Shown: piece after piece, positions 2,541 to 37,091 of the stretch
Position numbering within the stretch: the first letter of the stretch is position 1
How the letters are laid out: every line of letters starts with the position of its first letter
Translations under genes and position numbers: made by a program
The notes under the pieces: generated by a model
The model's input: the letters and a program-made list of their open reading frames with translations, nothing else
What the model was told of the DNA's origin: nothing
The model's database searches: none
Source: a virus
Lineage: Duplodnaviria > Heunggongvirae > Uroviricota > Caudoviricetes
DNA length: 56,409 nucleotides
Direction: 5' to 3' (one strand)
Virus record (IMG/VR): IMGVR_UViG_2617270940_000006

Positions 2541-2810
2541 TTACTCCATGCTTTTCAGACGATTGGCAGCTCGTTTCAGCTTGTCGTTCGGTGCCGGAGG
2601 ATTGCTTATAGCATCCATAACCAGATTCCAGGACTCTTCACTTAGAACCAGTCTACGGTGTTGCTCTATCACCTTCACGGCACGTTCGGATGCACTGCTA
2701 ACCATGAACTGGGTAATGCTCTGGTTAGACATTGCGGCAGCTTCCTCGATGATGCTTTTATCGTCATCGGTTAATCTCAAATCGATGCGCTGCTTTTTCA
2801 GTGCGGACAT
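2541..2810 (-). CDS. DUF1778/RHH-type antitoxin (TacA-like)
   Basis: 89-aa ORF 8 bp upstream of the GNAT toxin gene; typical antitoxin-first operon order. Confidence 0.75.
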   Translation of the reverse strand: MSALKKQRIDLRLTDDDKSIIEEAAAMSNQSITQFMVSSASERAVKVIEQHRRLVLSEESWNLVMDAISNPPAPNDKLKRAANRLKSME

Positions 2811-3129
2811 GTGTACCCCCTGATGGCCGGTGATGTAGGAAGGCCATCATTGCTCTCTATTTAAACTGAGTTTTCGACTCAAAGGTTATTTAACTGGGCT
2901 ATAGCCCATTGCGTATGTGTCATCAAATTGTGTACGGCAATTTACCGTACACGTAATATAGAGATGATTGTCACTTTTTTCAACAGACAAATGATAACAA
3001 TTACTAGCAATAGGCAATAACAACCTACTAAATAACCTTTACACCGCAGCCGTAGGCATTTAGGCTATATCGCATATAAGAAAACAAGTTGTTTCATACG
3101 ACAATAATTCACGCAAAGGAAACTCACCA

Positions 3130-3795
3130 ATGACCAAGATCATTGTGGTTGGCGGCACAAAAGGCGGCCCAGGCAAATCTACCGTTGCCCAGCAAATTGC
3201 GGTATGTCTCAAAGTTAAAAAGAAAAAGAAGGTTCACGTCACCGATATCGATATCCAGCGCACCACGACCAGCTGGTGTGAAGACCGTCGCCAGAACGAA
3301 GATCTTGAACTGATCCCGTTCGCTTATGTGCAGGACGACATCGTCAAACATCTTAAATCGCTTCAGGGGCGAACTGATTATGTAGTGGTAGATGCTGGTG
3401 GCTTTGACTCCGAAATTCAGCGTCTGGCGATGCTTATGGCTGATGTAATCATCATCCCGCTGCGCCCTAAACGTCGTGATTTGAAATCTCTGCGTGATAT
3501 CGACCCGATTATCGACAACGTTCGCAATGTGAACGAGAAAGTTAAGATCCGCGCGGTAATAAACCAGTGTCCGTCATTGCCTTCCCAGGTATCACGTATT
3601 CTAGCCGCGAAGGAAATTGTCGAAACTTTCGGCATCGAGGCTGCGCCGGTCAATCTGTACAACCGTAACGTTTATGACGATGCGGAAGAGGCAGGTCGTT
3701 CTATCTTTGAAATGACTGGCGCTGAACGCGATAAGAAGGCAGAAGCCGAGTTCGAAGAGTTTGTAGATTACATCTTGAGTCTGGAGGAAGAATAA
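3130..3795 (+). CDS. parA: ParA-family partition ATPase (small type)
   Basis: Deviant Walker A (GGTKGGPGKST); 221 aa; followed by a small overlapping partner gene. Confidence 0.85.
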   Translation: MTKIIVVGGTKGGPGKSTVAQQIAVCLKVKKKKKVHVTDIDIQRTTTSWCEDRRQNEDLELIPFAYVQDDIVKHLKSLQGRTDYVVVDAGGFDSEIQRLAMLMADVIIIPLRPKRRDLKSLRDIDPIIDNVRNVNEKVKIRAVINQCPSLPSQVSRILAAKEIVETFGIEAAPVNLYNRNVYDDAEEAGRSIFEMTGAERDKKAEAEFEEFVDYILSLEEE

Positions 3796-4154
3796 TGTCC
3801 ATGAGAATGGGAGACCTTGCAAAGCGCAATGAGCCTAAAGAACCGGCCAAAAGCAGCACTCCACTGCGCCAGCCAGTCAGACCGCAGGGGCGTCCGACTC
3901 GTGGCAAAGAGAAAATTAAAAGTCGCACAATGTCACTGGAGGACGAATACTTCGAACTGCTGGAAATGATGAAGTTCATCCCTCGTTTCGAGAAGTTCAC
4001 CCGTTCTGACGTGATTCGCGCCGCCATTTTCCATCTGGCAGAGAAGTCACCGCAGGAAATCGAGGACATCGTGAAACTTAACGAGGCGATCACAGCTGCC
4101 GATGTCACGATGCGTACCGATGAAATCAAACGAGAGTTGATGAAGAAAGGTTAA
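3795..4154 (+). CDS. Partition DNA-binding partner candidate (ParG/ParB-like)
   Basis: 119 aa; start overlaps the parA stop (TAATG); basic N-terminal tail and a short folded C-terminal domain. Confidence 0.45.
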   Translation: MSMRMGDLAKRNEPKEPAKSSTPLRQPVRPQGRPTRGKEKIKSRTMSLEDEYFELLEMMKFIPRFEKFTRSDVIRAAIFHLAEKSPQEIEDIVKLNEAITAADVTMRTDEIKRELMKKG

Positions 4155-4157
4155 AAA

Positions 4158-4192
4158 TTATGCATTGGCGCAATGTACGCGCCAATGCATAA
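4158..4192. terminator. Bidirectional hairpin between convergent genes
   Basis: 14-bp perfect stem (TTATGCATTGGCGC/GCGCCAATGCATAA) with a 7-nt loop, flanked by an A-run and a T-containing tail. Confidence 0.5.
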
Positions 4193-4206
4193 GTACAGTG
4201 TCAGCT

Positions 4207-4974
4207 TTATGCCGCGCTAACACTATGTTCATTCCTAACCACCCCAACCTTCACAAAAGGGCTGCCGTAGCTTGGTGGCTTCTTGATTAATTTGCCTACA
4301 TACAGTTTTCTAATATGCTCATCGGCTATTCTGCCAACAAATTCATAACGTTTTGTGTCGGGGCCAAGAGCTATATCCCTTGTAAAGTACTGCTGAGAAC
4401 CGGCTTTGACCCAGCATTCAATCTGATAAACTTCCATTATCAGGCCCCCATATGTAGCGTAGGCATATTTGAGATTCTCGTCTCTTGGAACCTTTGCCCA
4501 TACGCCACGCGTAGCTTCATATAATGCCAGAGCGGACATTCCTGACTTGTAGGTGCTGTTTAGCAGGAAGGCAAGACCGGCGTGCTCAGGAGCAATTTCA
4601 GTTTCCTCTTGCAGCACTAAGTGATGGTAGGCGTCCAGTGATATTCTGCCCATCATGGAACCACTTCCTCGTACCTTATTCGTAAGCTCTCCGACACCCA
4701 TAAGGTCGATGCATGTCGCCTCAACAAGTTTGGCTGTGGTTTCATCCATACCATGACGAAGAATATCTATGCCTAATTTTTTATTAGCCAAAAGTTCTTT
4801 GATCCGCATGGATTTGGGAGAGTCATCGGGATACTTGATGTGATCGAGACAACGAGTCGATTTGCCTTTTCCTATGTAAAACGGTCTTTTCATCTTGTCT
4901 TCTGTATCATAGAGACAGTAAACATAGTATTTAGCCTTATCCAATGATCTCGCGTATACCGATAAATCGTCCAT
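4207..4974 (-). CDS. GIY-YIG nuclease-domain protein (free-standing)
   Basis: N-terminal YVYCLYD...PFYIGKGKSTR matches the GIY-YIG motif; about 150-aa C-terminal region of unknown fold. Confidence 0.6.
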   Translation of the reverse strand: MDDLSVYARSLDKAKYYVYCLYDTEDKMKRPFYIGKGKSTRCLDHIKYPDDSPKSMRIKELLANKKLGIDILRHGMDETTAKLVEATCIDLMGVGELTNKVRGSGSMMGRISLDAYHHLVLQEETEIAPEHAGLAFLLNSTYKSGMSALALYEATRGVWAKVPRDENLKYAYATYGGLIMEVYQIECWVKAGSQQYFTRDIALGPDTKRYEFVGRIADEHIRKLYVGKLIKKPPSYGSPFVKVGVVRNEHSVSAA

Positions 4975-5256
4975 TATTGCATCTCTTAGCTACTGACTAA
5001 TGCGTTCTATTTTACACATAAGTTTTTAATCAATTTTACAGGCTCAAAGTGTAGAGCTTCTGGGTGTCTAAGACGACAAGTTATGCCTGTTTCTGTATAT
5101 AAATAATAAGTAACTTATTAAATATATACGGAAGCAGGTCTTTTAAAAGACACCCACCAGAACAACTCCCTTCCGTTTCCACTTCCCAAAAATATCTCCA
5201 GTCGCTATGATTCGCTCACTTAGATAAGTAAGTACATACCTATTAAAGGGAATCAT

Positions 5257-5982
5257 GTGAGCCAGATCTTCTTCAACACTATCGACAATGACCAGTACGA
5301 TTTCATGACAGAGTGGAATACCGCTGTTATGGACAAGTGGGTCGCTGAAAACATTGGTTTGTCGCGCTGTAAAGACGAGGCTGAACTCTTCGAGACGAAG
5401 TGGTTTGATTACCGCGACATGCACCCACTTATGGCCACATGCCTTTTCACTGAGGCATACAAGCGCCAGTACTCATACATCATGCTGTCGCATGGTCGTG
5501 AACACTATGAGACGGCTCCATTCACAACCGGTCTGAAGCGTGTGCCATATCAGGAGTTGTCGACGGTCAACAAAACGTCGCTCTGGAAAGCACGCCAGTT
5601 TGCTGACCGCTATTGCTGCTCATACGACTACTTTATCTCCACCGTTCTTTCCGCAGCTGCACGACGGCTGTGGGACAAATTACCGCGCCCCCAGCATCTC
5701 TGGCAGCCCGAGTTGATCGAGATATTCGAAGAGAAGTTAGCCAAACGCGCTGTAACCCGTCTGGATGACTCTCTGGTGAGTTTTAAGCATCTTGGAGACA
5801 TGCAGCGTGACCCGATTCAGGAACGCTATTTTGAGTGGATTCTGGAGCGTCTGCGTGGCATTACCCGAGATAAACGCATCCGTATCATCTTCTCCGCTGT
5901 CTGGTTGATGGAAATCGTGCCTGAGCGTGTGATTTACGCGCACTTCCCGGAAGAACTGGAAGAAGCACGGCGATTCTGTTGA
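5257..5982 (+). CDS. Hypothetical protein
   Basis: 241-aa ORF preceded by a class A palindromic motif; no recognisable domain. Confidence 0.5.
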   Translation: MSQIFFNTIDNDQYDFMTEWNTAVMDKWVAENIGLSRCKDEAELFETKWFDYRDMHPLMATCLFTEAYKRQYSYIMLSHGREHYETAPFTTGLKRVPYQELSTVNKTSLWKARQFADRYCCSYDYFISTVLSAAARRLWDKLPRPQHLWQPELIEIFEEKLAKRAVTRLDDSLVSFKHLGDMQRDPIQERYFEWILERLRGITRDKRIRIIFSAVWLMEIVPERVIYAHFPEELEEARRFC

Positions 5983-6042
5983 TCCCCTATCTGGCTTTTT
6001 TAGTATTAGAAAACAAATTGTTTAAGCACCAAAGGAAAGCAC

Positions 6043-7383
6043 ATGACCGAACTTTGCCACACAGGACGAGGGTTGTCTGAAGAGTTCGACGACGACTTCC
6101 AGAATCGACTCGCAGCCTACTTCTGTCGCGACCATGAATTTCTGACTCGCGCCGGTGATCTGGTTGCGCCAAACCAGTTCTCCAATGCGGCCAACGCCAT
6201 TCTGGTGAACATGGTGTCGGGCTACTACAGAATGTATAAGAGCGCACCATCATCATCAGCCATCCTCGACATGCTCAAACGCGCCAAACGCGATAAGACG
6301 ATCCGCGAAGAGCTGTTCCCTGACGTTGTTGAGGCGTTTAAGCGCATTCTCGCTGAGAAGCTGTCAGATACGGCGTACATGGTCGACCAGGTCGCGACAT
6401 TTGCTAAAAGCGTAGCGTTCGACGATGCGCTAATTAAAGCGGCTGAGATGAAAGAGAAGGGTGATTTCCAGGGCGCGATGGCAATCATGGCTAAGGTCCA
6501 GCAAATTGGCTCTAACGAAGCGACCGGCATTTACGATTACTTCGCAGAATCAGCGGAGCGTTACAAGGCCCGTGAGTACGAAGCGTCCGACGATTACGTG
6601 CCAAACAGCATCACTACCGGCCTCCCGCTGCTCGACAAGCTGCTTTACCAGAAAGGCTGGGCAAAGCGTGAAATGGTGCTGTTTATGGGCTTCGCTAAGT
6701 CTGGTAAATCGACGGCGATGGGGGAGTTTTCCATCAACGCCACGCTTGCCGGTTACAACGTCCTGTATCTGTCGCTGGAAGTTCACACCTCCATTCTGTC
6801 AGATCGCTTTGACGCCCGTCTGTCTGAGACCGAAATGTCCAGGCTGGTGGAACGTCGCGATGACGTCCATCGCAAACTGGCGGAGCTGGGTGCGACGAAA
6901 GGCGTGGGAAGTTTGTGGATTGTTGAACGACCGTCCGGAAGCATGTCGCCCGCAGATCTGGACCGTATGTTGGGCAGCATGAAAGCCAACGGTATGGTCC
7001 TCGATATGGTTGTGGTCGACTACGCTGACCTGATGCGTGCCAGCTACGACCTCCGCGACGACCGCGCTAACATTCGCAGCATCTACACTGACCTGCGTGC
7101 GCTGTACGACAAACACAACGTTGCCGGCATCACGGCATCGCAGACTAACAGAGAAGGTGGCGCTTCTGAGGTGGCTACAATGATGCACGCAGCGGACAAC
7201 ATCGAGAAGGTGCGTATCGCTGACCTCGTTATCACTATCAACAAAACGGAAGAAGAAGAAGCGAAAGGCGAAGCGCGTCTTTACTTCGCTGGTTCACGTA
7301 ACCAGAAAGGCGGCGTAAGCATCCGCGTTAAGCAGAACCTCGAACAAATGCGATTCATCGAACGCATTATGGACGTCCTCTAA
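6043..7383 (+). CDS. DnaB-like replicative helicase
   Basis: RecA-fold C-terminal domain with Walker A (GFAKSGKST) and Walker B (VVVDYADLM); conserved AAAGGAAAGCACATG start context. Confidence 0.8.
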   Translation: MTELCHTGRGLSEEFDDDFQNRLAAYFCRDHEFLTRAGDLVAPNQFSNAANAILVNMVSGYYRMYKSAPSSSAILDMLKRAKRDKTIREELFPDVVEAFKRILAEKLSDTAYMVDQVATFAKSVAFDDALIKAAEMKEKGDFQGAMAIMAKVQQIGSNEATGIYDYFAESAERYKAREYEASDDYVPNSITTGLPLLDKLLYQKGWAKREMVLFMGFAKSGKSTAMGEFSINATLAGYNVLYLSLEVHTSILSDRFDARLSETEMSRLVERRDDVHRKLAELGATKGVGSLWIVERPSGSMSPADLDRMLGSMKANGMVLDMVVVDYADLMRASYDLRDDRANIRSIYTDLRALYDKHNVAGITASQTNREGGASEVATMMHAADNIEKVRIADLVITINKTEEEEAKGEARLYFAGSRNQKGGVSIRVKQNLEQMRFIERIMDVL

Positions 7384-7470
7384 AAAAGAAGGCGTGGGGA
7401 AACACTCTCCACGCCTGTCTCCAGAAGAGAACAAATTTCTCTTTTGCCAAAACCACAAAAGAAAAAACAC

Positions 7471-8655
7471 ATGAGCCTTTATGGTATTCAAATACCGAGG
7501 CTTATCAAGATATTACCTGCAAAAAACAGGGGTAAGAACGTGAGCGACTTGAAAGAATTACTGACCGAGCTGGATTTTGAGCAATGGCTCGATATGGAAG
7601 GGATCATCTACCGTCATGGTGGAGTCAGTACTCGCGGACGAGAGGTCAACATTAAAGAGTGTCCGGTATGCGGCAGCTCAAACTGGAAGGTTTATTTCAA
7701 CCTGACCAGTGGTGTCGGCAAATGCTTTGCAGGTGATCATCCCGAAGAGATTCAGTTCAATAAGCTGGTCTTCCTAAAGCATTACAGCGGCAAATCCCGT
7801 CGCGATTTTGAAGAGTACGTCCAGAACGCGCTGATCTCACAAGGTTGGGCGCCGAAGAAGGAAGAGATCGTGCTGGCCAGCAAGGTTGAACTGGAAGGAC
7901 CGGTAGCTCTCCCGCGCCATTACGAACTCCCCATTGACGGTCGTCTTCCTGATTATCTGGTGGAGCGCCAGATTTCCCCGGAGCTGGCCAAATACTTTGA
8001 TCTGCGTTACTGCGTCGAAGGCAAGCACGCATACGTCGATCCGTACACAGACCAGGTCAAAGGACAGGTATTCGATATGCGAATACTGATACCGGTTTAC
8101 GATCTGGATGGCGTGATGAAGACCTTCCAGGGTCGTGACATTACCGGTGCAGCAGAACGCCGGTATCTGTTCCCCATGCAGCTGCCAGCATCGGGTAAAT
8201 TTCTCTACAACGGCCACAATGCAGTCGGCAAACAGACTGTAGTTGTCTGTGAGGGGGCGTTCGATGTTATGGGGGTTAAACGAGCTATTTTTGATGAAGA
8301 AACATTACGCGATTACGTGGAACCGATAGGAACGTTCGGGATGCATCTATCTGGTAACACCACTCAGGATGCAGAAGATCAGTTGGGCGCGTTCCTGACG
8401 CTCAAGGCGCGTGGATTACGTAATGTGATTATGATGTGGGATAGTGAAAAGCAAGCTATACGCAACACGATGGCCGCAGCCAGGCGACTGACCAGTATCG
8501 GTCTTAATGTCAAAGTAGCGTGTTTGGGCGAGGAAGGACTCGATCCCGGCGATGCGACACCGGGGCAGATTATCAAAGCCTACTATTGCGCAAAACCTTA
8601 TTCACGACAGCTTGAACTTTTAAGCAAGGTAAAAGGCATAGCTGCATTAGTTTGA
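7471..8655 (+). CDS. DnaG-like primase (zinc finger + TOPRIM)
   Basis: CPVCGSS...C zinc motif and a TOPRIM-like VVVCEGAFD segment; start chosen at the ATG with the conserved context, not the upstream track start. Confidence 0.8.
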   Translation: MSLYGIQIPRLIKILPAKNRGKNVSDLKELLTELDFEQWLDMEGIIYRHGGVSTRGREVNIKECPVCGSSNWKVYFNLTSGVGKCFAGDHPEEIQFNKLVFLKHYSGKSRRDFEEYVQNALISQGWAPKKEEIVLASKVELEGPVALPRHYELPIDGRLPDYLVERQISPELAKYFDLRYCVEGKHAYVDPYTDQVKGQVFDMRILIPVYDLDGVMKTFQGRDITGAAERRYLFPMQLPASGKFLYNGHNAVGKQTVVVCEGAFDVMGVKRAIFDEETLRDYVEPIGTFGMHLSGNTTQDAEDQLGAFLTLKARGLRNVIMMWDSEKQAIRNTMAAARRLTSIGLNVKVACLGEEGLDPGDATPGQIIKAYYCAKPYSRQLELLSKVKGIAALV

Positions 8656-8788
8656 ACCAGTATTATCAACGGCTCGGAAGTGTCTAAATTATCCGTGGCG
8701 ATTCATAACCTTGCGGCTGCTCACCCCATCAAGAAGCATCTTTAACGCGTCACGGGACAATTTGTTGTATTTGCGTACCATTAATTTA

Positions 8789-9166
8789 CTACGCCGTACC
8801 ATACAATCTACGTAACGTGGCAACGACAGTAGATACGGATACCTCTCCGGTCGCAGCCCCCACAGTAAGCTCTGCCAGTTCTGGTGAATCATATACCTGC
8901 ACACCGTTACGGCGCAGAAATAACAACGCACTGTTTAGCGCGGTACGCTTATTGGCATCATTGAATATATGCCCTCTCGCAGTAGCCACCAGGTAAGTTG
9001 CGGAGACTTCGAAAAGGTCGGTAATCTCTTCATATGCAACTCTGGCCTGGACTCTCCCGATAATAGCCTCAGCTCTTCCCGAATCTGACATGCCTGGCAG
9101 GCCGCCGTAGCGGCTTATATTCGCATCATGAATTGCAGTAAGCTCTTCCGGTGATATATGCCTCAT
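8789..9166 (-). CDS. doc: Doc toxin (Fic/Doc family)
   Basis: 125 aa with [12 protein letters not shown]; near-identical to my recollection of P1 Doc. Confidence 0.95.
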
Positions 9167-9387
9167 TATCGGTTAACCAGTTTCTTATTGGTGGTGTCCA
9201 GAGTGTCAAACAGGGATGCGAATTCAGCATCCAGCGCCGCTTTTTTGTAGGCTTCGAAAGTGGCCTTGCTGACAATTACAGCTGGCTCACGGCCTCTACG
9301 GGTGATTTCAACCTCTTCTCCGGCTTCAACATTGTTGAGCACTTCGGTAAGATTGCTGCGTGCGGTACGGAAGTTAATAGATTGCAT
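9166..9387 (-). CDS. phd: Phd antitoxin
   Basis: [10 protein letters not shown]... matches recalled P1 Phd; stop overlaps the doc start. Confidence 0.95.
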
Positions 9388-9571
9388 AAACACCTCGTGT
9401 ACTCAATATGTGTACGCAATTATAGAGCTTAATTGCCCACTACTCCATCATTTTATCCAGTGCGCCTTATACCTCCACTCTGAAGGACGGGGTTTTAGGG
9501 CGCTCTGGATAAAAACACACGTACTTTCTCTCCGAAAGTACGTGAAAAGTAGCGACTAACCACCATGCTCA

Positions 9572-10582
9572 TTAGTCGTAGGATACGGCAAATATCGCCT
9601 GGCCTTGAACTTCCCCAGGCTGTAAAGCTTCCTCTTTCACGCGAACGTATTTTGCGGTAATCGGGAAGATGTACTGTTCCTGAATAGCCGCCATTTTAGG
9701 TAATCTGTTCATCAGGGTATCGCCCAGCTTTAACGGTGTCGTTGCATTACCATTGTAAATCTGGAACCCTACACCCTTAGCACCATCGGACAATGTATTT
9801 TTCAATATTGTTCCACTATCATCCCACACACCACGCTCAACTTTAAAAGTCACTGGATTAGTCGTGACGTTATAGACACTATCGCAATTTAGGACCAGAT
9901 CTACAGAACCTGATTTTGAGTTATTGGCAGATAGCATCTCACTTATCGTTGTTTCTGGTATTCTTATTTCGTAAGTCGGTTGCGAGAAACGACAGGTTGT
10001 GGGTTTGTGTTTAACAGTAATGGTTAGTTTTTGTTCGTAAGCATCGCCTTTATTTAACAACCCCAATAAATTGCACAATATCCATGAAAAAATATTTGAA
10101 CTGCATTGATTATCAGATAAAAAGTTACCCGCTGGCTTTTTTAATTCGAATGAATCCCCCTCTACCGCTTCACCATGATCACTTCTATATGTAGTTGGTG
10201 GTATATATGAGGCCGTTAACTTCAGTTGTTTATTATTAATGGTATCAGCAACAGAATAGGTTTTAGGCGACAGAAGCGAACCACTCGTTTCTACAGGAAA
10301 TCCATCAGCCTCAAGCTTTAATTTAATAAAAATAGACTTATTGCTGGAGCCATCTTTCATTTCAACAATATAGTCATCTAACGTTGTTGCAAAATACATC
10401 TTATCCCCCCTCGAGTTACATTCATAAGATCCTTGCAGGTTGGGATTAAAACTTACTATTGTTGAATCCCTTGTTAAGTCCAGTGTAATTGGTTGAGTTG
10501 CTGTCCAAGTTCCCTTAGGGGTACATTTCGCCTGCCCAAAAAATGGAATAATCAACAAAAACAAAAACCAATATTTCTTCAT
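9572..10582 (-). CDS. Fimbrial minor subunit / tip adhesin candidate
   Basis: Signal peptide (MKKYWFLFLLIIPFFGQA); distal gene of the chaperone-usher operon; start set 11 bp after the usher stop. Confidence 0.55.
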   Translation of the reverse strand: MKKYWFLFLLIIPFFGQAKCTPKGTWTATQPITLDLTRDSTIVSFNPNLQGSYECNSRGDKMYFATTLDDYIVEMKDGSSNKSIFIKLKLEADGFPVETSGSLLSPKTYSVADTINNKQLKLTASYIPPTTYRSDHGEAVEGDSFELKKPAGNFLSDNQCSSNIFSWILCNLLGLLNKGDAYEQKLTITVKHKPTTCRFSQPTYEIRIPETTISEMLSANNSKSGSVDLVLNCDSVYNVTTNPVTFKVERGVWDDSGTILKNTLSDGAKGVGFQIYNGNATTPLKLGDTLMNRLPKMAAIQEQYIFPITAKYVRVKEEALQPGEVQGQAIFAVSYD

Positions 10583-23665: not shown

Positions 23666-25897
23666 ATGTCCAAAAAAACCACCAAAGCTGTACTGAAAGA
23701 GGTGCAGGATTTTCGCGACTGTGTAAAACGAGTTGTAGCGATGCTTTCAGGTAAACAGATACCTGTTGCAGAACGAGGCAATGAAGCATATGTCCGCTAT
23801 AACCGGCGCGGCGAACCAGTGCTGGTAAACATCCCATCTATACCGGACGACGCGTCGCCAACCCTCATGAACGCAGTGCGTGGTTTTCTCGACCATGAGG
23901 TGGCCCATATTCTCTTTACTGAACCGAAAGTCGCAATGCAGATGCACGAAAGAGGAAAGGCTCCGTCTACGGGGCTTTGGAATGCGCTGGAAGACGTTTT
24001 TATTGAACGCAGAATGGGGCAGGTCTTTAACGGAACCCGGCGTAATTTACTTGCAACACAGAGTCTGGTTATCGACAAATACTTCAGGAATAAAGTACCA
24101 GAAGCGGTTTTAGCCTGTCACGGAGACCAGCGTGAATTGTTTTTGAAATTCTTCCTTTGCCCGGTCGTCCGCGCCTGGGATGGACAAAGCCCCTTCATCG
24201 ATTTTATGGAAGAACACTGGCGCCTTATCGAGAGGCCGGTAGCCTTACTAAAGGAGCATGGTATAGACGTGGCCGTTCGCAATATGTCGAACACTGAGGA
24301 TTGCGTGAAGGTCGCTGCTGCTATAGCCCAAATCATGCAGGATATGAAAGACAAGCCAGAGGGCAAATTACCAGAACTTAAATCATCTGCCAGAAAGCCG
24401 TCGGAGAGCAAAGACGAGTCCGAGGAAACGCCAGAATCAGGTGACGAGCCGTCTCATGGTGACTCTGCATCTAAGCCTGCCAAAGGCGAAGGCGATGACA
24501 AGGAAGAACGAGAAGATGATGCATCAGAAGAGGAAGATTCTGGGGATTCCGATTTGCCTGATTCATTAGATAAGGACTTACCTACACACGTTAAAGATAT
24601 TAGTGATACAGAAAGTAAATATACAGAAGCAGGCCACGAAGAGTCAGGAGACACCCCAGAATCCGATGCTATCGGCATGAAATCAAGTGACTCTGACACC
24701 GATGATGATGGCGGTGAGGACTCCGATACTGATCGTGGGGAAACTGAAGAAGAAGACGTCGAAGGCAAAAAAAATAAAGATGGTGCGGAAGTGCCCAAAG
24801 ACAGTGAGTCTGGCTTTGTTCCTGCGCCGGATGAAATGACTCTGGAGGAGGCGCTAAAGGCGCTCGACGAGATGGAAGACGGAATCGGTGAAATGACCGA
24901 AGACGCACTGTCGGCCACCATCAGCAAAGAGCTTATGAGCGTCTCACCTTCTGATTATCGGCCATACGATCGATCATACGACTTTATCGGGTTGATTGAT
25001 GGAGCCGAAGAGCATGTGAAGCGCACCAGAAAGACGTTCGGTGCAATACCAATGCACTCACCAGTCGACCGCTACCGTATGGTGCCAGAAGGCAGAAAAC
25101 TCTTTGAACTGAAAATCGAAAAACATCTGTCTGCAGGCGTTTCTTCGACGCTGGCCAAAGACCTGGAGCGGGCCATCGCCAGCCGCAACCGAGTTCAGTT
25201 TATACCTGGTCAGAGGCGTGGGCGGATACATGGCGCAAGCCTGTATCGTCTGGCAATGAACGACGACCGAGTGTTCCGCAAGAAGGAAGACCATAGAGCG
25301 GTGAACGCGTGTGTCCAGCAGGTCATCGACTTGTCCGGCTCAATGGATGGCGTGAAGATTCAACTGGCCCTAGCCAGTGCCTATACCATTGCGGATGCTT
25401 TAGATCGTATCAATGTCCCCAACATCATCACCGGCTTTACCACGTTCGGTAGCCCAGATTATGAAACCAGGTCGAAGCGCGGGTTTACACGCTTCGAGGC
25501 GCTCATGCTGCCCATTATCAAAAACTGGAATGAGAAAGCAAACTCTCCAGAGATCCGTGCTCGCATGGGATGCGTATGTGAGACGTTCCCCCTGCTCAAT
25601 AACGTCGATGGTGAGAGTGTCGCGCAACTGGCTACCCTGTTTGCAGGGCGAATGGAGGACAAAAAGATCATGCTGGTTATGAGTGATGGGGAGCCATGTG
25701 CTACAGGTAGTGGATTCCATCAGCATTTACGAACCGTCACCAAAGAAATTGAGACCTTGAGCGACATCGAACTGATGGCTATCGGCATTCTGACCGACGA
25801 ACCACGGCGTTACTACAAAAATTACGCACTGGTTAACAGTGTTGAAGAGTTAGGGCCGTCAGTCGTCACTGAGTTATCTCGTATCATTCTTGGGTAA
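23666..25897 (+). CDS. VWA-domain protein (CobT-like) with long acidic linker
   Basis: MIDAS-type DxSxS motif (DLSGSMDG) in the C-terminal domain; about 180-aa D/E/S-rich low-complexity stretch; start placed at the ATG with the conserved context. Confidence 0.65.
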   Translation: MSKKTTKAVLKEVQDFRDCVKRVVAMLSGKQIPVAERGNEAYVRYNRRGEPVLVNIPSIPDDASPTLMNAVRGFLDHEVAHILFTEPKVAMQMHERGKAPSTGLWNALEDVFIERRMGQVFNGTRRNLLATQSLVIDKYFRNKVPEAVLACHGDQRELFLKFFLCPVVRAWDGQSPFIDFMEEHWRLIERPVALLKEHGIDVAVRNMSNTEDCVKVAAAIAQIMQDMKDKPEGKLPELKSSARKPSESKDESEETPESGDEPSHGDSASKPAKGEGDDKEEREDDASEEEDSGDSDLPDSLDKDLPTHVKDISDTESKYTEAGHEESGDTPESDAIGMKSSDSDTDDDGGEDSDTDRGETEEEDVEGKKNKDGAEVPKDSESGFVPAPDEMTLEEALKALDEMEDGIGEMTEDALSATISKELMSVSPSDYRPYDRSYDFIGLIDGAEEHVKRTRKTFGAIPMHSPVDRYRMVPEGRKLFELKIEKHLSAGVSSTLAKDLERAIASRNRVQFIPGQRRGRIHGASLYRLAMNDDRVFRKKEDHRAVNACVQQVIDLSGSMDGVKIQLALASAYTIADALDRINVPNIITGFTTFGSPDYETRSKRGFTRFEALMLPIIKNWNEKANSPEIRARMGCVCETFPLLNNVDGESVAQLATLFAGRMEDKKIMLVMSDGEPCATGSGFHQHLRTVTKEIETLSDIELMAIGILTDEPRRYYKNYALVNSVEELGPSVVTELSRIILG

Positions 25898-25992
25898 TAG
25901 TTTTACCCTTAAAAATAAGTAACTACTTACTATACAGCCTAATATATTTCTATAAGATATACCCCACAAACGACAAACAGTAAGGAAAAAAC

Positions 25993-27228
25993 ATGACCGC
26001 TACTGCACTACAGCAAGAAGAACATTTGCCGGAAGCCATCGTCTGCAAGTGGTGTGGCAAATCCTTTCATTACCTGAAATCCCATATCTCTATGGGCCGT
26101 TGCGAGAATATTCCTGAGTCTGCGAAGGGTCTGGACGTGGACGAAGTGGTGAAGATGTACACCTCTGCGTTTCCAGATGAACCAACGATCTCTCGCACGG
26201 CACTGGCCAAACTCAATGAGAAGCGTGCCGAAAAGCATTCAGGCGAAGGAAAAGTAGCGGAGATTAGCGCACATCCGGGCTACGCAGGAACGGTCGAATA
26301 CAAGACCGAACTGGTGGCCGCGCACGAGCTGCTTGGCGTAACGATCAAAGAGCTGGGAACGCCACGCGGAAAGCCACTACAGGTGACAGTCAACGTCAAC
26401 ACGCCATATCCGGAGTTCGTACCGGAAGCGAAGAAGAACTATGTGTATGGCGACTTCGACCTGATTAAAGACATCTTCATGATGCTGGAAATCGGAATCC
26501 CGGGTTATCTCTGGGGCCATGCAGGAACCGGTAAATCTTCTCTTCCTACGCAGCTATGTGCCCTGCTAAATCGACCACTGATCCGCGCCCAGCATACGGC
26601 GTCTATGGAGGAAGCGCACGTTACAGGCCAGATCCTCGCTCGCGATGGTTCCACCTATTTCGAACCGGGTTTACTAGCGCTGGCGATGAAAAATGGTTGG
26701 GTTTACCTCGCTGATGAATATGACTTCGCGTTCCCGCAGATTCTGGGTGTGTATCAGCCAGTTCTTGAAGGAGAGCCGCTGATCATCAAAGAGGCAACTG
26801 CGGACTGGCGCCGCATCACCCCGCATAAACGCTTTGCCTTCATTGGCACTGGCAACACTAACGGCTCTGGCGACGAAACAGGTCTCTATCAAGGCACAAA
26901 CATCCAGAACGCAGCGAACTTCTCGCGTTTTGGCATTGTTTCAAACGTGAAGTACATGAGTACGAAGGCAGAAGTCAACATGCTGGCTGAAGCAGGCGTC
27001 ATCCGCGAATACGCCGAGAAGATGGTGAAGTTCGCGAATCTTATCCGTGAAGGTTATGAAAAGCATCAGATTAGCCAGCCAATCGGGCCTCGTGAGCTGC
27101 TGCTGTCCGCCAAAATCGGAATGATGCGCGGTGATTTCTCTGCCGGCATCGAAAAGTCGTTTATCAATAAACTTCCATCCACGTCTGCACAGGCAGCGCG
27201 TGAAGTGGTTCAGAAGATCTTTGGTTAA
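25993..27228 (+). CDS. AAA+ ATPase (CobS/MoxR-like)
   Basis: Walker A GHAGTGKSS, Walker B VYLADEYDF; N-terminal Cys/His cluster. Confidence 0.7.
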   Translation: MTATALQQEEHLPEAIVCKWCGKSFHYLKSHISMGRCENIPESAKGLDVDEVVKMYTSAFPDEPTISRTALAKLNEKRAEKHSGEGKVAEISAHPGYAGTVEYKTELVAAHELLGVTIKELGTPRGKPLQVTVNVNTPYPEFVPEAKKNYVYGDFDLIKDIFMMLEIGIPGYLWGHAGTGKSSLPTQLCALLNRPLIRAQHTASMEEAHVTGQILARDGSTYFEPGLLALAMKNGWVYLADEYDFAFPQILGVYQPVLEGEPLIIKEATADWRRITPHKRFAFIGTGNTNGSGDETGLYQGTNIQNAANFSRFGIVSNVKYMSTKAEVNMLAEAGVIREYAEKMVKFANLIREGYEKHQISQPIGPRELLLSAKIGMMRGDFSAGIEKSFINKLPSTSAQAAREVVQKIFG

Positions 27229-27408
27229 TCGTGCGTAAAGGATGTTTCGGCTCTCTTATCGCAGCGTCTGAAACTGGCAGTGCTTGTTTGGCATGTCCGG
27301 ATAGACCCGAGTGCCACCAGTCAGCCAAAGAGGTTGCGATTTCGATGTATGGGAAGTTCGTTGGCTTCCCCAATGACAAAATCAAGAAAACCAGAAAGGT
27401 AAAAGCAC

Positions 27409-30400
27409 ATGAAGGCTCTGATGGTCAGAACTGACTTCTCCCTGGGAGAGTCAGCTCTAAAAGCAGAAAACGCGGTAAAAATCGCAAGAGACGCTGGCTA
27501 CACGGCTGTCATTTCCGCCGACAGCATGAATATTGCCAGTGTAATCCCTCTGCAACGTGCCGCTGGCGACGACATGTCGGTAATTTGTGGCGTTAAGCTG
27601 AATGTTGTCGACGATCCGACATACGAGCACCGCGCTCGCTTGGCGAAAGAGTCAGGAAGATGTATGGAATCATTAGTTCGTGATCGCAGCTACTGCTTCA
27701 CGGCACTGATAAAGAATGAACAAGGTTATCGCGACGTGTGCGAACTGATGACCTTAGCGAACAAGCGCGAGCAATTCTACTTTGTCCCGCGTCTGGCGCT
27801 TGAGCAGCTGACAGCCGCATATGCCAAAGGCAACATCATCCTGCTGACGTCCGACATTGGCAGTGTATTCCAGCGCCGGGACTTCGCAAAAATTATCGGG
27901 ACGCTGGTCACAGCTGGCGGTCGCGATAACTTCTACAGCGTGGTTTATCCGCACCCTACCCCATTCTACGACCAGATTAACGTCCGGGCGATGAAAGTGG
28001 CGAGCGCACTGAAAATAGAGCCAGTGGCGTTCTATCCCGCTTATTACGAAGCGATCGACGACGCTGACATTAAAGACATTGCGCACATGGTTACGAACAA
28101 CATCAAAATCGACCAGCCGCATCGTCTGCGCATCCCCCACCAGCGAGATAACGCTGTTAATGGTCGTCGCCATCTCCTTGAAGCGCTGAAAGCCTTCTCC
28201 GTTCGCATGGGCGTACCGGTAACAGCTGCAATGGCCTCAACAACGCAGGACACCATTATTGAAGCCTGCACATGGCGCTGGCATGAACTGCCACCAGCAC
28301 TGCCCAAGATGGCAGACGACGAGCCTGCAACGCTGATGAAGCTGGCTGTCGCGGGGCTACGCAAGCGTCTAACTACTAAAGAGTTTGGCTACACACCACC
28401 GGCTTCTGAGCACCGAGTGTATGTTGAGCGACTGAAGTACGAAATGGACACGCTGACCCGCCTGGGCTTCTGTGGCTACTTCCTGATGGTGCGCGACCTG
28501 ATGAATCACAGCCGTGAAACTGGCATTCCTGTCGGGCCAGGTCGTGGTTCCTCTGCCGGTTCTCTGGTGGCGTGGTGCATAGGCATAACCAACGTCGATC
28601 CTATCCGTCACGGTCTTCTGTTTGAGCGTTTCATCAACCCTGAACGTCTTGACTTACCGGATGCGGATCTGGACTTCAGCCAGGCACGTCGTCATGAGGT
28701 GATCGAGTATCTGAATGAACGCTATGGCGAAGATTACGTTGCCGGTATTCCAAACTTCACCTATCTGGGCGCCGCTTCTGCGCTGCGAGACACTGCGCGT
28801 ATTTACGGTGTCGACGCTGCGGATATGGCGGTATCCAAAGAGTTCAAGAATCTGGAAGACGATAGCCTATCTCTGGAAGAGCTGCGCGAACAACTGGCCA
28901 GCCTGGACAAATACACCACGAAAAACCCGGAAGCGTTCAAAGCGGCGTGTAAGCTACAAAGCCTGATGCGTGGTTTTGGCCGTCATGCAGCGGGGATGAT
29001 CGTCGCTGGCGTTCCACTGGTAGAGCGCACGCCCGTCGAGCTGCGTGGCAACGCTCGCTGTATTGCATTCGATAAACGTTACTGCGAGGCAATGGGGCTG
29101 ATTAAGCTGGACGTTCTCGGTCTGGCAACGCTCGATCTGCTGGATAGCGCGAAACGCTACATCAAAGAGAGTACCGGGGAAGACATCAATCTCGATGCTA
29201 TCCCACTGGACGATCGCAAAGTTCTGGATGGGTTCGCTGCAGGGTACACTCAGGGCGTATTCCAGCTGGAGTCCGGCCCCATGCGCAAGCTGCTTAAAGA
29301 TCTGGGCGGTGGCATTGAGCCAATGAGCTTCAAAACCGTTGTCGCCACGACCGCACTCTTCCGACCTGGCCCGATTCAATCAGGCATGTTGGACGACTAT
29401 GTCTCCGTGGCCAAAGGCTTCATGGCTCCACATTCAATTCATCCGCGTCTTGAGGAAGTCACCCGGGAGACTAATGGTGTTTTGCTCTATCAGGAACAAA
29501 TCATGCAAAGTTCCCGAGTACTTGCCGGGTTCTCTATGGCCGAAGCAGACGCTCTGCGTTCCGCTATCGGTAAAAAGAACATGGATAAGATGAAAGCGAT
29601 CGGCAGCGATTTTGTAGAACGAGCACAAGCAGGCTGGGTGACACTGTCACTCAAAAATGGAGGTACTGTAGAGGTTCACAAACACGCAAAACTGGATTGC
29701 TCAGACGGTAAGCGTAGAAGCTACAGCGAGGCTATTAGTGACGGCATAGACTACGTGGAGATCGTCTCTGAACAAGAAGGTCTCAGTAAGGAAAAAGCCC
29801 AAGAAATATGGGACGCCTTTGAGAAGTTCGGTGGATATGCCTTCAACAAATCACACAGCGTTGCTTATTCTTTAATCAGCTATCAGTCTATGTGGTTAAA
29901 GACACATTACCCTGCTGAGTTCTTCGCTGCTGCGCTCACCATTCTGGGCGAGGATAAGCACCAGGGCTTAGTTAAAGATGCGCTGACCTATGGCATTCGC
30001 GTATTGCCACCAGACGTTAACGTGTCATCTAACCGAATTGAGATCCGCACGCTGGAAGACGGCAGTCAGGTTCTGTATGCACCATTCTCTGCTGTGAAGG
30101 GCTGCTCTGAGAATGGTTGCCAGGCCATCATGAGAGCGCGTGAGAAAGTTGGCGGCAAATTCGAGTCACTTGAGCAATTTGAGGAAGCGGTCGAGAAGCG
30201 TGCATGTAACAGCCGGGTACGCGAATCACTGCAAAAAGTCGGTGCGTTCGCATCGATTGAGTCTGGCAGTCTGCCAGCGACAGATCCGGAACGGCTGCGC
30301 GACCAGGCAGAGTTGATGGGTAATCTGGTGATCGACGCTGTAAAAGCCTCTCGACCGTTCGAGATGACCCCTAAGCGCTCTGCTGAAGTAAATGTACTGA

Positions 30401-30915
30401 TGACGCGCATGGCGGCCGAAATGGGGCTGGGAGACGATCTAATCCGTCCAAGCATTGGTATTAAGCCAAAAATCATGGTTATTCTGGACAACGCGAACGG
30501 CAATGATGGGCGTACCGGCTACTTCATGGAGAACGGTTACGACGACTTTAAGGCGAAGTTGCTTACTGCCGGCGATCTGCGTATGGGCGATCTCTACGTC
30601 ACCGGCGTGTGTAAAAAGGTGAAGGACAAAGAGAAGGACTACACCAAAGACGAGATCGGTCAGTTCACCGACTTTATGCGTGAAGAGATCAATCTGGTGC
30701 GTCCGACCTATGTACTGACGTGTGGCAGCCGGGCGACGTCGCTCTTCAACAACAAGAGCAAACCATCCGACCTGGTTGGACGCAAAGAGTATCTGCCGGA
30801 GCTGGATGCGACCGTTTTCTACGGATTTAACCCGAATATCCTTTACTTCCGACCGGAAGAAGGAGAGCGACTGGAGGCCATTCTGACTGATATTGCGGAG
30901 ACGATAAATAAGTAA
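27409..30915 (+). CDS. DNA polymerase III alpha-like replicative polymerase
   Basis: 1168 aa; N-terminal PHP-like region and polymerase core (GPGRGSSAGSLVAW) typical of DnaE-family enzymes. Confidence 0.9.
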   Translation: MKALMVRTDFSLGESALKAENAVKIARDAGYTAVISADSMNIASVIPLQRAAGDDMSVICGVKLNVVDDPTYEHRARLAKESGRCMESLVRDRSYCFTALIKNEQGYRDVCELMTLANKREQFYFVPRLALEQLTAAYAKGNIILLTSDIGSVFQRRDFAKIIGTLVTAGGRDNFYSVVYPHPTPFYDQINVRAMKVASALKIEPVAFYPAYYEAIDDADIKDIAHMVTNNIKIDQPHRLRIPHQRDNAVNGRRHLLEALKAFSVRMGVPVTAAMASTTQDTIIEACTWRWHELPPALPKMADDEPATLMKLAVAGLRKRLTTKEFGYTPPASEHRVYVERLKYEMDTLTRLGFCGYFLMVRDLMNHSRETGIPVGPGRGSSAGSLVAWCIGITNVDPIRHGLLFERFINPERLDLPDADLDFSQARRHEVIEYLNERYGEDYVAGIPNFTYLGAASALRDTARIYGVDAADMAVSKEFKNLEDDSLSLEELREQLASLDKYTTKNPEAFKAACKLQSLMRGFGRHAAGMIVAGVPLVERTPVELRGNARCIAFDKRYCEAMGLIKLDVLGLATLDLLDSAKRYIKESTGEDINLDAIPLDDRKVLDGFAAGYTQGVFQLESGPMRKLLKDLGGGIEPMSFKTVVATTALFRPGPIQSGMLDDYVSVAKGFMAPHSIHPRLEEVTRETNGVLLYQEQIMQSSRVLAGFSMAEADALRSAIGKKNMDKMKAIGSDFVERAQAGWVTLSLKNGGTVEVHKHAKLDCSDGKRRSYSEAISDGIDYVEIVSEQEGLSKEKAQEIWDAFEKFGGYAFNKSHSVAYSLISYQSMWLKTHYPAEFFAAALTILGEDKHQGLVKDALTYGIRVLPPDVNVSSNRIEIRTLEDGSQVLYAPFSAVKGCSENGCQAIMRAREKVGGKFESLEQFEEAVEKRACNSRVRESLQKVGAFASIESGSLPATDPERLRDQAELMGNLVIDAVKASRPFEMTPKRSAEVNVLMTRMAAEMGLGDDLIRPSIGIKPKIMVILDNANGNDGRTGYFMENGYDDFKAKLLTAGDLRMGDLYVTGVCKKVKDKEKDYTKDEIGQFTDFMREEINLVRPTYVLTCGSRATSLFNNKSKPSDLVGRKEYLPELDATVFYGFNPNILYFRPEEGERLEAILTDIAETINK

Positions 30916-30920
30916 TAAAG

Positions 30921-30947
30921 AAAAACCCGCCATTTGGCGGGTTTTAT
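30921..30947. terminator. Bidirectional rho-independent terminator
   Basis: AAAAACCCGCC-ATTT-GGCGGGTTTT between convergent genes. Confidence 0.7.
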
Positions 30948-31504
30948 GCGCAAATTTTTTCGCAGTCTTGCGAGTGACTGAGTGAGCGAGTAACTCTCTC
31001 CACCTCATGGATGTCGCCCAACGATCTTATACGCAGGGCAAGATTCCACGTACTCAATGTGCGCGCGTTACGCACCAGTTCTTCCCGTGCTTTTTCGTCT
31101 TTGCTGTCAAGACGACCGCAGTCGTTCAACCATTTAGCGACTTCCGCCCAGTCCCAGAGTGGAGACTGACCGCTGATACGCTGAACAGGGCAAGGAAAAT
31201 CACCTTTGCCACGTAATCCGTCTTTAAGCAGAGTAATAGCCTGGCGCGTTAAGCCAGAGAGTTGAGCAATATCGCTCAAGCCTACCAGTGCTGAATCTAC
31301 CGATTCCACCACTGCGCCAATGCCTGCTGTTTCAATATCAAGGATTGCCGATTCGATTGCTTCATCTAAAGATTTAGCTTCTCGGTCAAATTCTACATAC
31401 ACTGAGTTTCCGTAGTAGCAAATGAGCGCATCATCGCAACCGTGGCTATACAGAGCATCTGCGACTACGCAGTACTGACTACAGGTTATCAGAATTATCC
31501 CCAT
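30944..31504 (-). CDS. Hypothetical DNA-binding protein (possible antitoxin-like fold)
   Basis: 186-aa minus-strand ORF inside a plus-strand module; N-terminal segment loosely HicB-like, central HTH-like segment. Weak assignment. Confidence 0.4.
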   Translation of the reverse strand: MGIILITCSQYCVVADALYSHGCDDALICYYGNSVYVEFDREAKSLDEAIESAILDIETAGIGAVVESVDSALVGLSDIAQLSGLTRQAITLLKDGLRGKGDFPCPVQRISGQSPLWDWAEVAKWLNDCGRLDSKDEKAREELVRNARTLSTWNLALRIRSLGDIHEVERVTRSLSHSQDCEKICA

Positions 31505-31613
31505 TTACATCAGCTTATCTACGTCAGCCCTCAAGTTCTTCAGCAAGCCAGCTCCACCGCCTGATTCCAACATGATAAAATTGATATACGAAAATAAGTA
31601 TATAGATAACATT

Positions 31614-32066
31614 ATGAGCACCGATATCTACGAAAAAATCATGTCCGATCTGGAGTTCGACCGCGACAATCTGGAGGAAGTCTGGCGTCAGCAACCGCGT
31701 CTGTTGATGGAGTATGGCTCTAAGCTGGCACGGGCAGAACGTGAGGTTGCAGATGCAAAACTCTCTCTCGACGCGATCGAGGCAAAAATCTATAACAACG
31801 AGCGTAAGAGCTTGAGTATGAATGGAATTAAGTTTAATGAATCCGTACTGGAAGCGAAGGTTAGAACCAACCCGCAATACCTCGCAAAGCGCCAGAAACT
31901 CGACGATGCTCGACACATTGCAGACCTGTACAAGCACGCTGTAGCCGCCTTCTCCCACCGCCGCGATATGATTGTCCAGGCGTCGAAGATGGCTATCGTA
32001 GAGATAGAGCGTCTGGGGGCCGAACGATTCCATTTACCCCGTCAATTTATGCTAGATAGTAAGTAA
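31614..32066 (+). CDS. Hypothetical coiled-coil protein
   Basis: About 150 aa, charged and helical; immediately upstream of the SSB gene. Confidence 0.4.
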   Translation: MSTDIYEKIMSDLEFDRDNLEEVWRQQPRLLMEYGSKLARAEREVADAKLSLDAIEAKIYNNERKSLSMNGIKFNESVLEAKVRTNPQYLAKRQKLDDARHIADLYKHAVAAFSHRRDMIVQASKMAIVEIERLGAERFHLPRQFMLDSK

Positions 32067-32164
32067 GTACTGATCTATCATTCTTCTCGCTCGAAAGAGC
32101 CACGAACAAACGAACGCCCAATGCGCATAGCGCCAATGGCCACAATCACAACAAGGAGAAATAC

Positions 32165-33181
32165 ATGTCTAAGTCATTACTTGATCTGCTTAACAAGACC
32201 CGTGGCGATATTGCTTCCAAACGTGGCAATAACATTGATTTGACCCGTCTGAAAGATGGCAATAACTATCTGCGCATTTTTCCGAACAAGGACGATCCGA
32301 ATGGCGTGTTCTTCCAGACTTTCGGTATGCACTACGTTAAGCATCAGAATGAGGAAGGCAAAGATGTAACCACCGCCTATATCTGCGAACAACACACCCA
32401 CGGCCACGCTTGCCAGCTGTGTGAGATGGTTATGGAAGGTCGCGCTCGCTTTAAGGGCAACAAAGCGATGGAAGAGCGCATTAATAGTATGCGTGCTACG
32501 CCGCGTTATCTGGTCAACGGTGTTCTGTCTGCGCGTGAAGACTTTGCGGACGCAGAGAAATGCCAGCTGATTGAGCTGCCGTCTACGGTCTTCGACGATA
32601 TCTGCAAAGTGATGTCCGAAGATATTGCGGACGATATTGGCAACCCACTGAGCAAAGAAGAAGGCTATGCGTTCCTGATTAAACGCACCGGTTCCGGTCG
32701 TGACACCAAGTACGACGTATCCCCGAAACGTAAAGTCTACAAAGGCGACATTCCTGAGAAGCTCTGGACTACCCAACACGATCTGATCGCATATGCGAAC
32801 CAGGCTGACGAAACTCGTTTGCTGTCCACGGCTCGCACTATGGGTCGTCTGATTGGTATTGCGGCTCCGGCAGCAACTATGTCCTCACCAGCCATTTCTT
32901 CCGCTGCAAAATCAGCCGCAGCTGGACTGCCAGGCTTTGGCTCTATCACTGGACATACGGAAGGCGCAGCAGCTGTCGCTACAGCACATACTCCGGCGCC
33001 AGAGTCCACCAGCCTGGTTGATGAAGAGATCCTGCGTGCAGCTGAAGCTGAGTTCAAACCGGAAGAAGCGAAAGCTCCGGAAGCCACCGAAGCCGCAAGT
33101 GCTTCAGCATCTGCTGCCGCTGCATCTGTACCAGCTGATGAAGGTCTCGATAACCTGCTGGCTGAACTGGACGCTCTGTAA
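32165..33181 (+). CDS. gp32-like single-stranded DNA-binding protein
   Basis: N-terminal basic region, His/Cys zinc cluster (HTHGHACQLC), acidic Ala-rich C-terminal tail; resembles T4 gp32 organisation from memory. Confidence 0.65.
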   Translation: MSKSLLDLLNKTRGDIASKRGNNIDLTRLKDGNNYLRIFPNKDDPNGVFFQTFGMHYVKHQNEEGKDVTTAYICEQHTHGHACQLCEMVMEGRARFKGNKAMEERINSMRATPRYLVNGVLSAREDFADAEKCQLIELPSTVFDDICKVMSEDIADDIGNPLSKEEGYAFLIKRTGSGRDTKYDVSPKRKVYKGDIPEKLWTTQHDLIAYANQADETRLLSTARTMGRLIGIAAPAATMSSPAISSAAKSAAAGLPGFGSITGHTEGAAAVATAHTPAPESTSLVDEEILRAAEAEFKPEEAKAPEATEAASASASAAAASVPADEGLDNLLAELDAL

Positions 33182-33198
33182 TCCCATAACGTGACCAG

Positions 33199-33227
33199 TA
33201 AGGCGTCTGCGGACGCCTTACTTTTTG
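33199..33227 (+). terminator. Rho-independent terminator
   Basis: TAAGGCGTC-TGCG-GACGCCTTA followed by CTTTTT. Confidence 0.65.
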
Positions 33228-33241
33228 GAAGGAGTGTACCG

Positions 33242-34452: not shown

Positions 34453-34454
34453 TC

Positions 34455-36797: not shown

Positions 36798-36801
36798 TCA
36801 C

Positions 36802-37088: not shown

Positions 37089-37091
37089 GTA

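Follow-up and report, generated by a model that had tools for sequence, protein, structure and literature searches.

The system PD-T4-3 reportedly comes from the work of Vassallo et al. 2022. Renamed CMoRE, it is now described as a single-protein type IV restriction enzyme (Liu et al. 2026, PMC12923530), in which the N-terminal GIYxY-YIG domain cuts DNA and the C-terminal domain binds 5hmC. The enzyme degrades 5hmC and glucosyl-5hmC (5ghmC) DNA but spares C and 5mC DNA, cuts at CN11/N9G, is active as a tetramer (dimer of dimers), and blocks the phages T2, T4 and T6 about 10^5-fold in a non-abortive manner (PMC12923530). An acidic autoinhibitory loop is found between helices 2 and 3 in "most" members of the family, and the "4A" mutation of the four acidic loop residues of CMoRE renders the enzyme toxic (PMC12923530). 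Four structures have been deposited (PDB 9U7U, 9U7Z, 9U75 and 9U8D), and the paper that describes them reports no structural homologues for the sensor domain (PMC12923530). A Capnocytophaga homologue, PD-T4-3Capno, 48% identical to PD-T4-3, is a modification-dependent nuclease in E. coli and also cuts the DNA of Mu, which carries carbamoylmethyl-adenine (Rodriguez-Rodriguez et al. 2025, PMC12366544). Besides, only two defence systems were active in a native clinical isolate of E. coli, one of them being PD-T4-3, and SSU5-group phage-plasmids of E. coli and Shigella sonnei were found to contain PD-T4-3 in an independent screen with DefenseFinder. The biochemistry and structure of the family having been published in 2025-2026, and DefenseFinder already flagging PD-T4-3 in such elements, no new mechanism is proposed here. 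What appears to be new, judging from the sequence, is a divergent copy of a PD-T4-3/CMoRE subfamily lodged in a slot for which we found no description.

The DNA analysed here, called the window below, is a stretch of 56,409 nucleotides that matches at 100% identity the E. coli plasmid pYUXYEH3934-1 (NZ_CP110979.1, 188.5 kb, IncFIB). Its par-rep region matches Salmonella phage SSU5 and the Escherichia phages PhiR41_1, CMS-2020a and Cyrano, as well as non-mobilizable plasmids of Escherichia, Klebsiella, Salmonella and Enterobacter, which number in the hundreds and measure about 110 kb; the backbone is thus that of an SSU5-like phage-plasmid, fused in this case into a larger multiresistance plasmid. 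In the list of open reading frames of the window, an ORF of 255 aa with an ATG start occupies 4207-4974 on the minus strand; the RefSeq CDS WP_001711193.1 of NZ_CP110979.1, labelled "hypothetical protein", has the same sequence. An initial annotation had seen there a free-standing GIY-YIG gene on the opposite strand at the partition/replication junction, antisense to its neighbours, and the ORF and the surrounding genes agree with this description, all the flanking genes lying on the plus strand (Table 1). The small partition gene, kept in all the relatives compared, is presumed to encode the centromere-binding partner of ParA. The same annotation spoke of an "AT-rich pocket". The GC content is indeed lower in the nuclease gene (44.5%) and in the intergenic region upstream of it (35.1%) than in the neighbours (48.5-54%) and the window (47.8%), but the bias is only mild, and about half of the AT-rich intergenic sequence, at 5086-5256, is conserved backbone outside the insert. 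A search of NCBIfam with the nuclease protein gave no match and PHROGs returned only phrog_5356, a family of unknown function. As an Rfam scan of 3000-9600 (E<=1) gave no match, the intergenic regions contain no known RNA.

Table 1. Features of the partition-replication junction in the window, and content of the corresponding slot in related elements.
Feature	Position	Strand	Remarks
ParA ATPase	3130-3795	+	left of the nuclease gene
Small partition-operon gene, 119 aa	3795-4154	+	after parA; PHROG 5111, function unknown
Variable cassette, 933 bp	4153-5085	-	terminator, nuclease gene and 111 bp of upstream control region
Intrinsic terminator hairpin	4158-4192	-	perfect stem of 14-15 bp; T-run on the minus strand only
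C-terminal domain, ~aa 110-245	4240-4647	-	homologous to the modification-sensing domain of CMoRE
GIYxY-YIG nuclease domain	4660-4941	-	Y17, Y19, Y33-I-G; R41, E85, N99; acidic loop Y48-P-D-D-S52
5' control region of the cassette	4975-5085	-	weak Shine-Dalgarno AAGAGA and two repeat copies
Right backbone flank, AT-rich palindrome (26 + 26 nt)	5086-5138	.	conserved; alignment of 7 elements, self-reverse matches
phrog_2500 gene, conserved	5257-5982	+	right of the nuclease gene
DnaB-like helicase	6043-7383	+	right of the nuclease gene
Primase	7444-8655	+	right of the nuclease gene
Slot of SSU5		+	three genes, the last encoding a DUF2971 protein
Slot of Cyrano			DUF2971 protein
Slot of K. pneumoniae p205880-NR1			KAP-family NTPase of 572 aa
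Slot of an S. sonnei plasmid			degraded copy of the KAP-family NTPase
Slot of K. pneumoniae FDAARGOS_629			two unknown genes

The N-terminal GIY-YIG motif was called clear in the initial annotation, and so it is: residues 32-104 score 30.1 bits (E 5.5e-7) against Pfam PF22945 (LEM-3_GIY-YIG), whose curated cut-off is 27 bits. The motif is made of Y17-V-Y19 and F32-Y33-I34-G35. The third tyrosine is present, Y17-V-Y19 and Y33-I-G35 aligning to Y17, Y19 and Y31 of CMoRE and being invariant in 38 homologues. The catalytic Arg and Glu are found in R41 and E85, which align to R39 and E93 of CMoRE and are, like N99, invariant in the alignment (38/38 homologues). As for the interface residues of CMoRE, R80 and V92 correspond to R73 and V84, again invariant among the 38, while L96 is replaced by C88; this Cys88 and Cys42, both invariant in the homologues, are specific to the subfamily. 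The acidic loop (YPDDS, for AADDDD/VDDDE in CMoRE) lacks 5 residues by comparison, with 2 of the 4 acidic positions retained; the loops of the relatives are rich in D, E and S and equally short. Altogether 58 columns are invariant across the 38 homologues, a strong purifying conservation that runs along the full length of the protein.

The C-terminal half had been described as uncharacterised, which holds for Pfam and NCBIfam but not beyond, as it is homologous to the sensor domain of CMoRE, whose structure was published in 2026. The sole PADLOC match is PD-T4-3 (PDLC04031, 1.3e-23), aa 11-231 aligning with positions 11-238 of the 256 of the model, so that 221 of the 255 aa are covered; when 38 diverse members of the family were submitted to PADLOC, all 38 matched PD-T4-3 only, the best at 4e-30. 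Among all PDB chains, phmmer retrieved nothing other than CMoRE (9U7U and 9U75; E 2e-15, aa 12-230 against 17-243), and BLASTP aligned the protein with a canonical E. coli copy of PD-T4-3 over 236 aa at 33% identity (E 2e-20). An AlphaFold model built on an alignment of 38 sequences (pLDDT 81.5, pTM 0.76) had the four CMoRE entries as its top four Foldseek matches, with E values of 4e-12 to 1e-10. The product of 4207-4974 is thus most likely a divergent but full-length relative of PD-T4-3/CMoRE, as far as homology can tell. The predicted model further suggests for the C-terminal domain a PUA-like reader fold (EVE/YTH/ASCH-like). We infer that the PD-T4-3 reported by DefenseFinder in SSU5-group elements would be this very gene; the presence among the matches of the S. 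sonnei partial protein P0040, 100% identical, supports this identification.

The LEM-3-like nature of the Pfam match and the vicinity of replication genes might call to mind a structure-specific GIY-YIG nuclease of housekeeping or repair type (UvrC/Slx1/LEM-3-like), serving the replication or the recombination of the phage-plasmid. However, the homology with CMoRE spans both domains and is far stronger than with any repair enzyme; the gene is transcribed separately and antisense, and it is dispensable, most SSU5-like elements being devoid of it and some of the slots being empty. A repair function is therefore extremely improbable.

A more plausible departure from a simple CMoRE-like behaviour, still unlikely in our opinion, would be a family member whose specificity has been altered or lost, which would target another DNA modification or rival mobile elements or would simply be decaying. 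The shortened acidic loop, the invariant cysteines 42 and 88 of the subfamily and the low identity to the tested enzymes (26-33% for any of them, so that the substrate specificity may differ) go in this direction, as does the ability of a PD-T4-3 homologue to cut Mu DNA too (PMC12366544). Decay, on the other hand, agrees poorly with the 58 columns invariant in 38 homologues and with a gene at least 99% identical in 135 plasmids, and a changed target would still mean the same mechanism.

The organisation of the locus is that of a single-component system of the PD-T4-3 type, with one gene and its own terminator in the cassette, and with solitary relatives. The hairpin at the 3' end of the gene, previously noted as strong and bidirectional, is certainly strong (folding energy of -28.5 kcal/mol, z -5.05, on the minus strand; -24.8 kcal/mol, z -2.66, on the plus strand) but it is not symmetrical: a T-run follows the stem on the minus strand only, where the sequence is TTTTTAACCT, the plus-strand tail being GTACAGTG. 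This indicates that the hairpin is the intrinsic terminator of the nuclease gene itself. It is missing from the relatives with an empty slot or another cargo, and thus belongs to the cassette. The loop of the hairpin (4172-4178) reads AATGTAC here and GTACATT in PhiR41_1 and NZ_CP062814 (our loci L003 and L012), the stems being identical; to go by these letters, the terminator palindrome is flipped inside a cassette otherwise 98-99% identical. On the 5' side of the gene, the minus strand carries the repeat TGTAAAAT(A/T)GA twice, at 5006-5016 and 5030-5040 in plus-strand coordinates, and both copies include a -10-like TAAAAT. A scan of the minus strand for the sigma-70 consensus revealed no canonical site ahead of the gene, and we infer that the promoter would lie at these -10-like repeats of the control region.

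The limits of the cassette are given by the relatives. Homology to SSU5, Cyrano and the S. sonnei and K. pneumoniae elements stops at about 4152, where the small partition gene ends with its stop codon, and resumes at 5086 with the palindrome, which is conserved in each of the SSU5-like backbones compared. This palindrome could be an operator or an origin element for the replication genes; after it, up to about 5256, come the stretch TCCCTTCCGTTTCCACTTCC, also conserved, and a promoter-like site (5183-5211). A search for repeats around the cassette found neither terminal inverted repeats nor a target-site duplication, and a mobility of the transposon type was rejected on these grounds. Nevertheless the cassette has moved: over 4207-5085, which covers the gene and its 5' region, identity to PhiR41_1 and NZ_CP062814 is 97-99%, while parA, the phrog_2500 gene, the helicase and the primase on its flanks reach only 80-86% identity in the same comparison, which implies a transfer between diverged backbones at the same position. 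The small partition gene is 91-93% identical, against 84% for parA.

The presence/absence polymorphism that the initial annotation had proposed to look for does exist at this position, the slot containing the nuclease gene, a different cargo or nothing. The flanks of the slot were recovered in 803 records of a plasmid collection. The nuclease gene, at 99% protein identity or more, is present in 135 plasmids, a DUF2971 homologue in 236 records, and the slot is truly empty in 8 of the 803, the stop codon being separated from the palindrome by some 30 bp. NZ_CP113488.1 is an example of such an empty slot (1745-1900 of our locus L013). Most SSU5-like elements are thus without the nuclease gene, and most of the relatives that lack the cassette carry another cargo (Table 1). 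The DUF2971 proteins match PDC-S31 of PADLOC (3e-41) and the KAP NTPase matches PDC-S49 (1.5e-24), both of which are candidate families. By contrast the two-gene cargo of K. pneumoniae (244 and 136 aa) and SSU5_035/036 matched nothing in PADLOC or Pfam, so that the label of defence does not extend to all occupants of the slot. These pairs (SSU5_035 and SSU5_036, at 2624-3668 of our locus L002, and the K. pneumoniae pair, at 1476-2613 of L010) associate a protein of about 214-244 aa with one of 136 aa, and it is possible that they represent unrecognised defence or anti-defence cargo. In S. sonnei CP022461 (L009, 1485-3187), the gene resembling the KAP NTPase/PDC-S49 is unannotated and split in two ORFs; it appears to be a decaying cargo.

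A polymorphic slot, with a few truly empty sites (8/803) and a cassette that passed between lineages to the same position, could also be the signature of a homing endonuclease, and this was the first choice of the initial annotation: a free-standing, Seg-like enzyme would cut the slot devoid of cassette, and repair would copy the cassette in. The location of a GIY-YIG nuclease—a generic trait of the superfamily—between conserved genes of a phage-like element fits with homing, and the higher identity of the small partition gene (91-93%, against 84% for parA) could be read as a co-conversion tract. However, homologous recombination in the conserved flanks, as occurs at defence hotspots, explains this pattern equally well, the identity break on the right-hand side is abrupt at the palindrome, and the slot without the cassette mostly contains other cargo and seldom an empty target. 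The protein itself does not look like a Seg enzyme either. A tblastn search of 50,697 phage records (E<=1e-3) retrieved only SSU5-like elements and CMoRE-like genes of jumbo phages, with no T4-like Seg, and the protein has no Pfam match to NUMOD, HTH or zinc-finger modules at E<=0.1, its C-terminal half being homologous to the CMoRE sensor.

The distribution of the family bears on the same question. A word-index search gave 288 relatives; the best 120 of the 288 are 50-79% identical, about 246 aa long, and belong to Salmonella, Providencia, Pluralibacter, Shewanella, Zobellella and metagenomes. A profile search among 1.84 billion representatives gave 3,101 members at E<=1e-3 and 1,316 at E<=1e-10, mostly two-domain proteins of 240-265 aa. 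Four relatives were inspected in their contigs: they are solitary, in four unrelated chromosomal loci, one of them adjoining two RelA/SpoT-domain genes and transposases; a canonical CMoRE copy, on a prophage-like plasmid of E. coli, adjoins a type II RM system. Solitary relatives at 50-79% identity scattered over different chromosomal loci, in Providencia, Shewanella and others, are not expected for a site-specific homing enzyme and rather fit a cellular defence gene. Distant homologues in jumbo phages that are annotated as homing nucleases could still be quoted in favour of homing. Every test able to separate homing from defence nevertheless points to defence, and the proposal of a Seg-type homing endonuclease, not supported in view of the phage search, the CMoRE-type C-terminus, the scattered chromosomal relatives and the candidate-defence occupants of the slot, now seems to us very unlikely.

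The jumbo-phage genes deserve a word of their own. Serratia phage Moabite gp009 (2968-3732 of our locus L021) and ten or more other jumbo phages of Serratia, Pectobacterium and Klebsiella encode full-length homologues (about 28% identity, 85-88% coverage), which are annotated as GIY-YIG or homing endonucleases. They may be CMoRE-like nucleases directed against competing phages with modified DNA.

The initial annotation had kept a defence role as a fallback, and the homology with PD-T4-3/CMoRE together with the candidate-defence occupants of the slot brings this role to the front. We consider it probable that 4207-4974 encodes a modification-dependent (type IV) restriction nuclease of the PD-T4-3/CMoRE family, forming an accessory defence cassette that would protect the host of the phage-plasmid from phages with hypermodified DNA. 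The ORF, the homology and fold match over the full length, the motifs, the boundaries of the cassette and the polymorphism of the slot are seen directly in the sequences and the model. The functional side of the proposal is transposed from homologues at about 30-33% identity, and covers nuclease activity, target modification, expression and anti-phage phenotype. A promoter of its own would drive the nuclease gene, in the direction opposite to the par and rep operons, from which its own terminator would insulate it. The C-terminal domain of the protein would bind hypermodified DNA (T-even phages have 5-hydroxymethyl- or glucosyl-hydroxymethyl-cytosine, and other modifications might be recognised too), and the N-terminal GIYxY-YIG domain, as a dimer or a tetramer, would cut at a fixed distance from the modified base. 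The unmodified DNA of the host and of the phage-plasmid would be spared, making the immunity direct and not abortive, and the short acidic loop over the active site might act as a safety catch. Some features would count against this proposal: the identity of only 26-33% to any tested enzyme, the contact of CMoRE with 5hmC by a main-chain atom (Y127), for which the sequence can give no confirmation, the loop shorter by 5 residues with 2 of 4 acidic residues kept, the replacement of L96 by Cys and the lack of a canonical promoter in our scan, to which may be added that the alternative cargos of the slot match candidate PADLOC families only.

Going further, our literature search, partial in its coverage, returned no obvious earlier description of a defence hotspot at the par-rep position of SSU5. 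This position may be a previously undescribed hotspot for the exchange of defence cassettes, bounded on one side by the palindrome; the subfamily may read DNA modifications other than those read by CMoRE; and the sensor of the family may be a cryptic PUA-like reader (EVE/YTH/ASCH). That all three should hold together is, at this stage, rather doubtful.

Other parts of the element were noted in passing. The start of the window cuts into an IS2-type InsC/InsD transposase pair (1-1274), and parA is preceded by a TacT/TacA-like pair, a GNAT-family toxin and a DUF1778 antitoxin (2012-2810). Right after the stop codon of the primase gene lies a stretch of 46 bp (8655-8700) that unrelated plasmids, well over a thousand in number, share at 96-100% identity; its copies often lie beside transposase genes of the IS3 family, and it is probably the remnant of an insertion sequence. 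A Doc/Phd toxin-antitoxin pair (8789-9393) directly follows the primase gene, and a complete chaperone-usher fimbrial operon, YehD-like, extends from 9572 to about 14400, both inside the backbone. SSU5 has a different gene at the matching point, and the doc/phd and fimbrial genes may have entered the backbone at the 46-bp stretch. The multiresistance region (about 24000-39100; 27465-42562 of the record) contains three IS26, fosA3, blaCTX-M-14, dfrA14 with intI1, qnrS1 and tet(A), and sits among phage-plasmid genes, with a DNA ligase upstream and phoH, an integrase and dnaE downstream.

These data propose a probable function, deduced from homology, for a gene that at least 135 sequenced phage-plasmids of Escherichia carry under the label "hypothetical protein". 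SSU5-like phage-plasmids are common in clinical E. coli and Shigella, and those with the cassette are predicted to arm their hosts against T-even-type phages, which would bear on phage therapy and on the ecology of phage-plasmids. The analysis also marks a defined slot where defence cargo would be swapped between lineages.

How does this locus finally compare with the known systems? From the T4 Seg proteins and I-TevI, the present protein is set apart by the lack of detectable sequence similarity and of a linker, zinc-finger, NUMOD or HTH module, by a C-terminal domain homologous to a modified-base sensor, and by relatives that are mainly chromosomal. Type IV restriction enzymes such as VcaM4I and McrB-N associate a PUA-like reader (EVE/YTH/ASCH/SRA) with a nuclease; here the nuclease is GIY-YIG, not HNH or PD-(D/E)xK, and the likeness of the readers is weak, coming from a predicted model without sequence support. 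As in the known defence hotspots, a fixed site in a conserved backbone receives unrelated defence cassettes, swapped by recombination; unlike them, the element is an SSU5-like phage-plasmid, the slot separates the par module from the rep module and most of the alternative cargos are candidate systems only. PD-T4-3Capno is a member of the same family as our protein and indicates that divergent members are still modification-dependent nucleases. Compared with CMoRE itself, the protein belongs to a distinct subfamily (relatives 50-79% identical, of about 246 aa), is only 26-33% identical, has a 9-aa C-terminal tail, a lid loop 5 residues shorter with 2 of the 4 acidic residues, and an invariant Cys in place of L96. 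With CMoRE it nevertheless shares the essential: one gene of about 250 aa carried by mobile elements, with the same catalytic Arg and Glu and a homologous C-terminal sensor.
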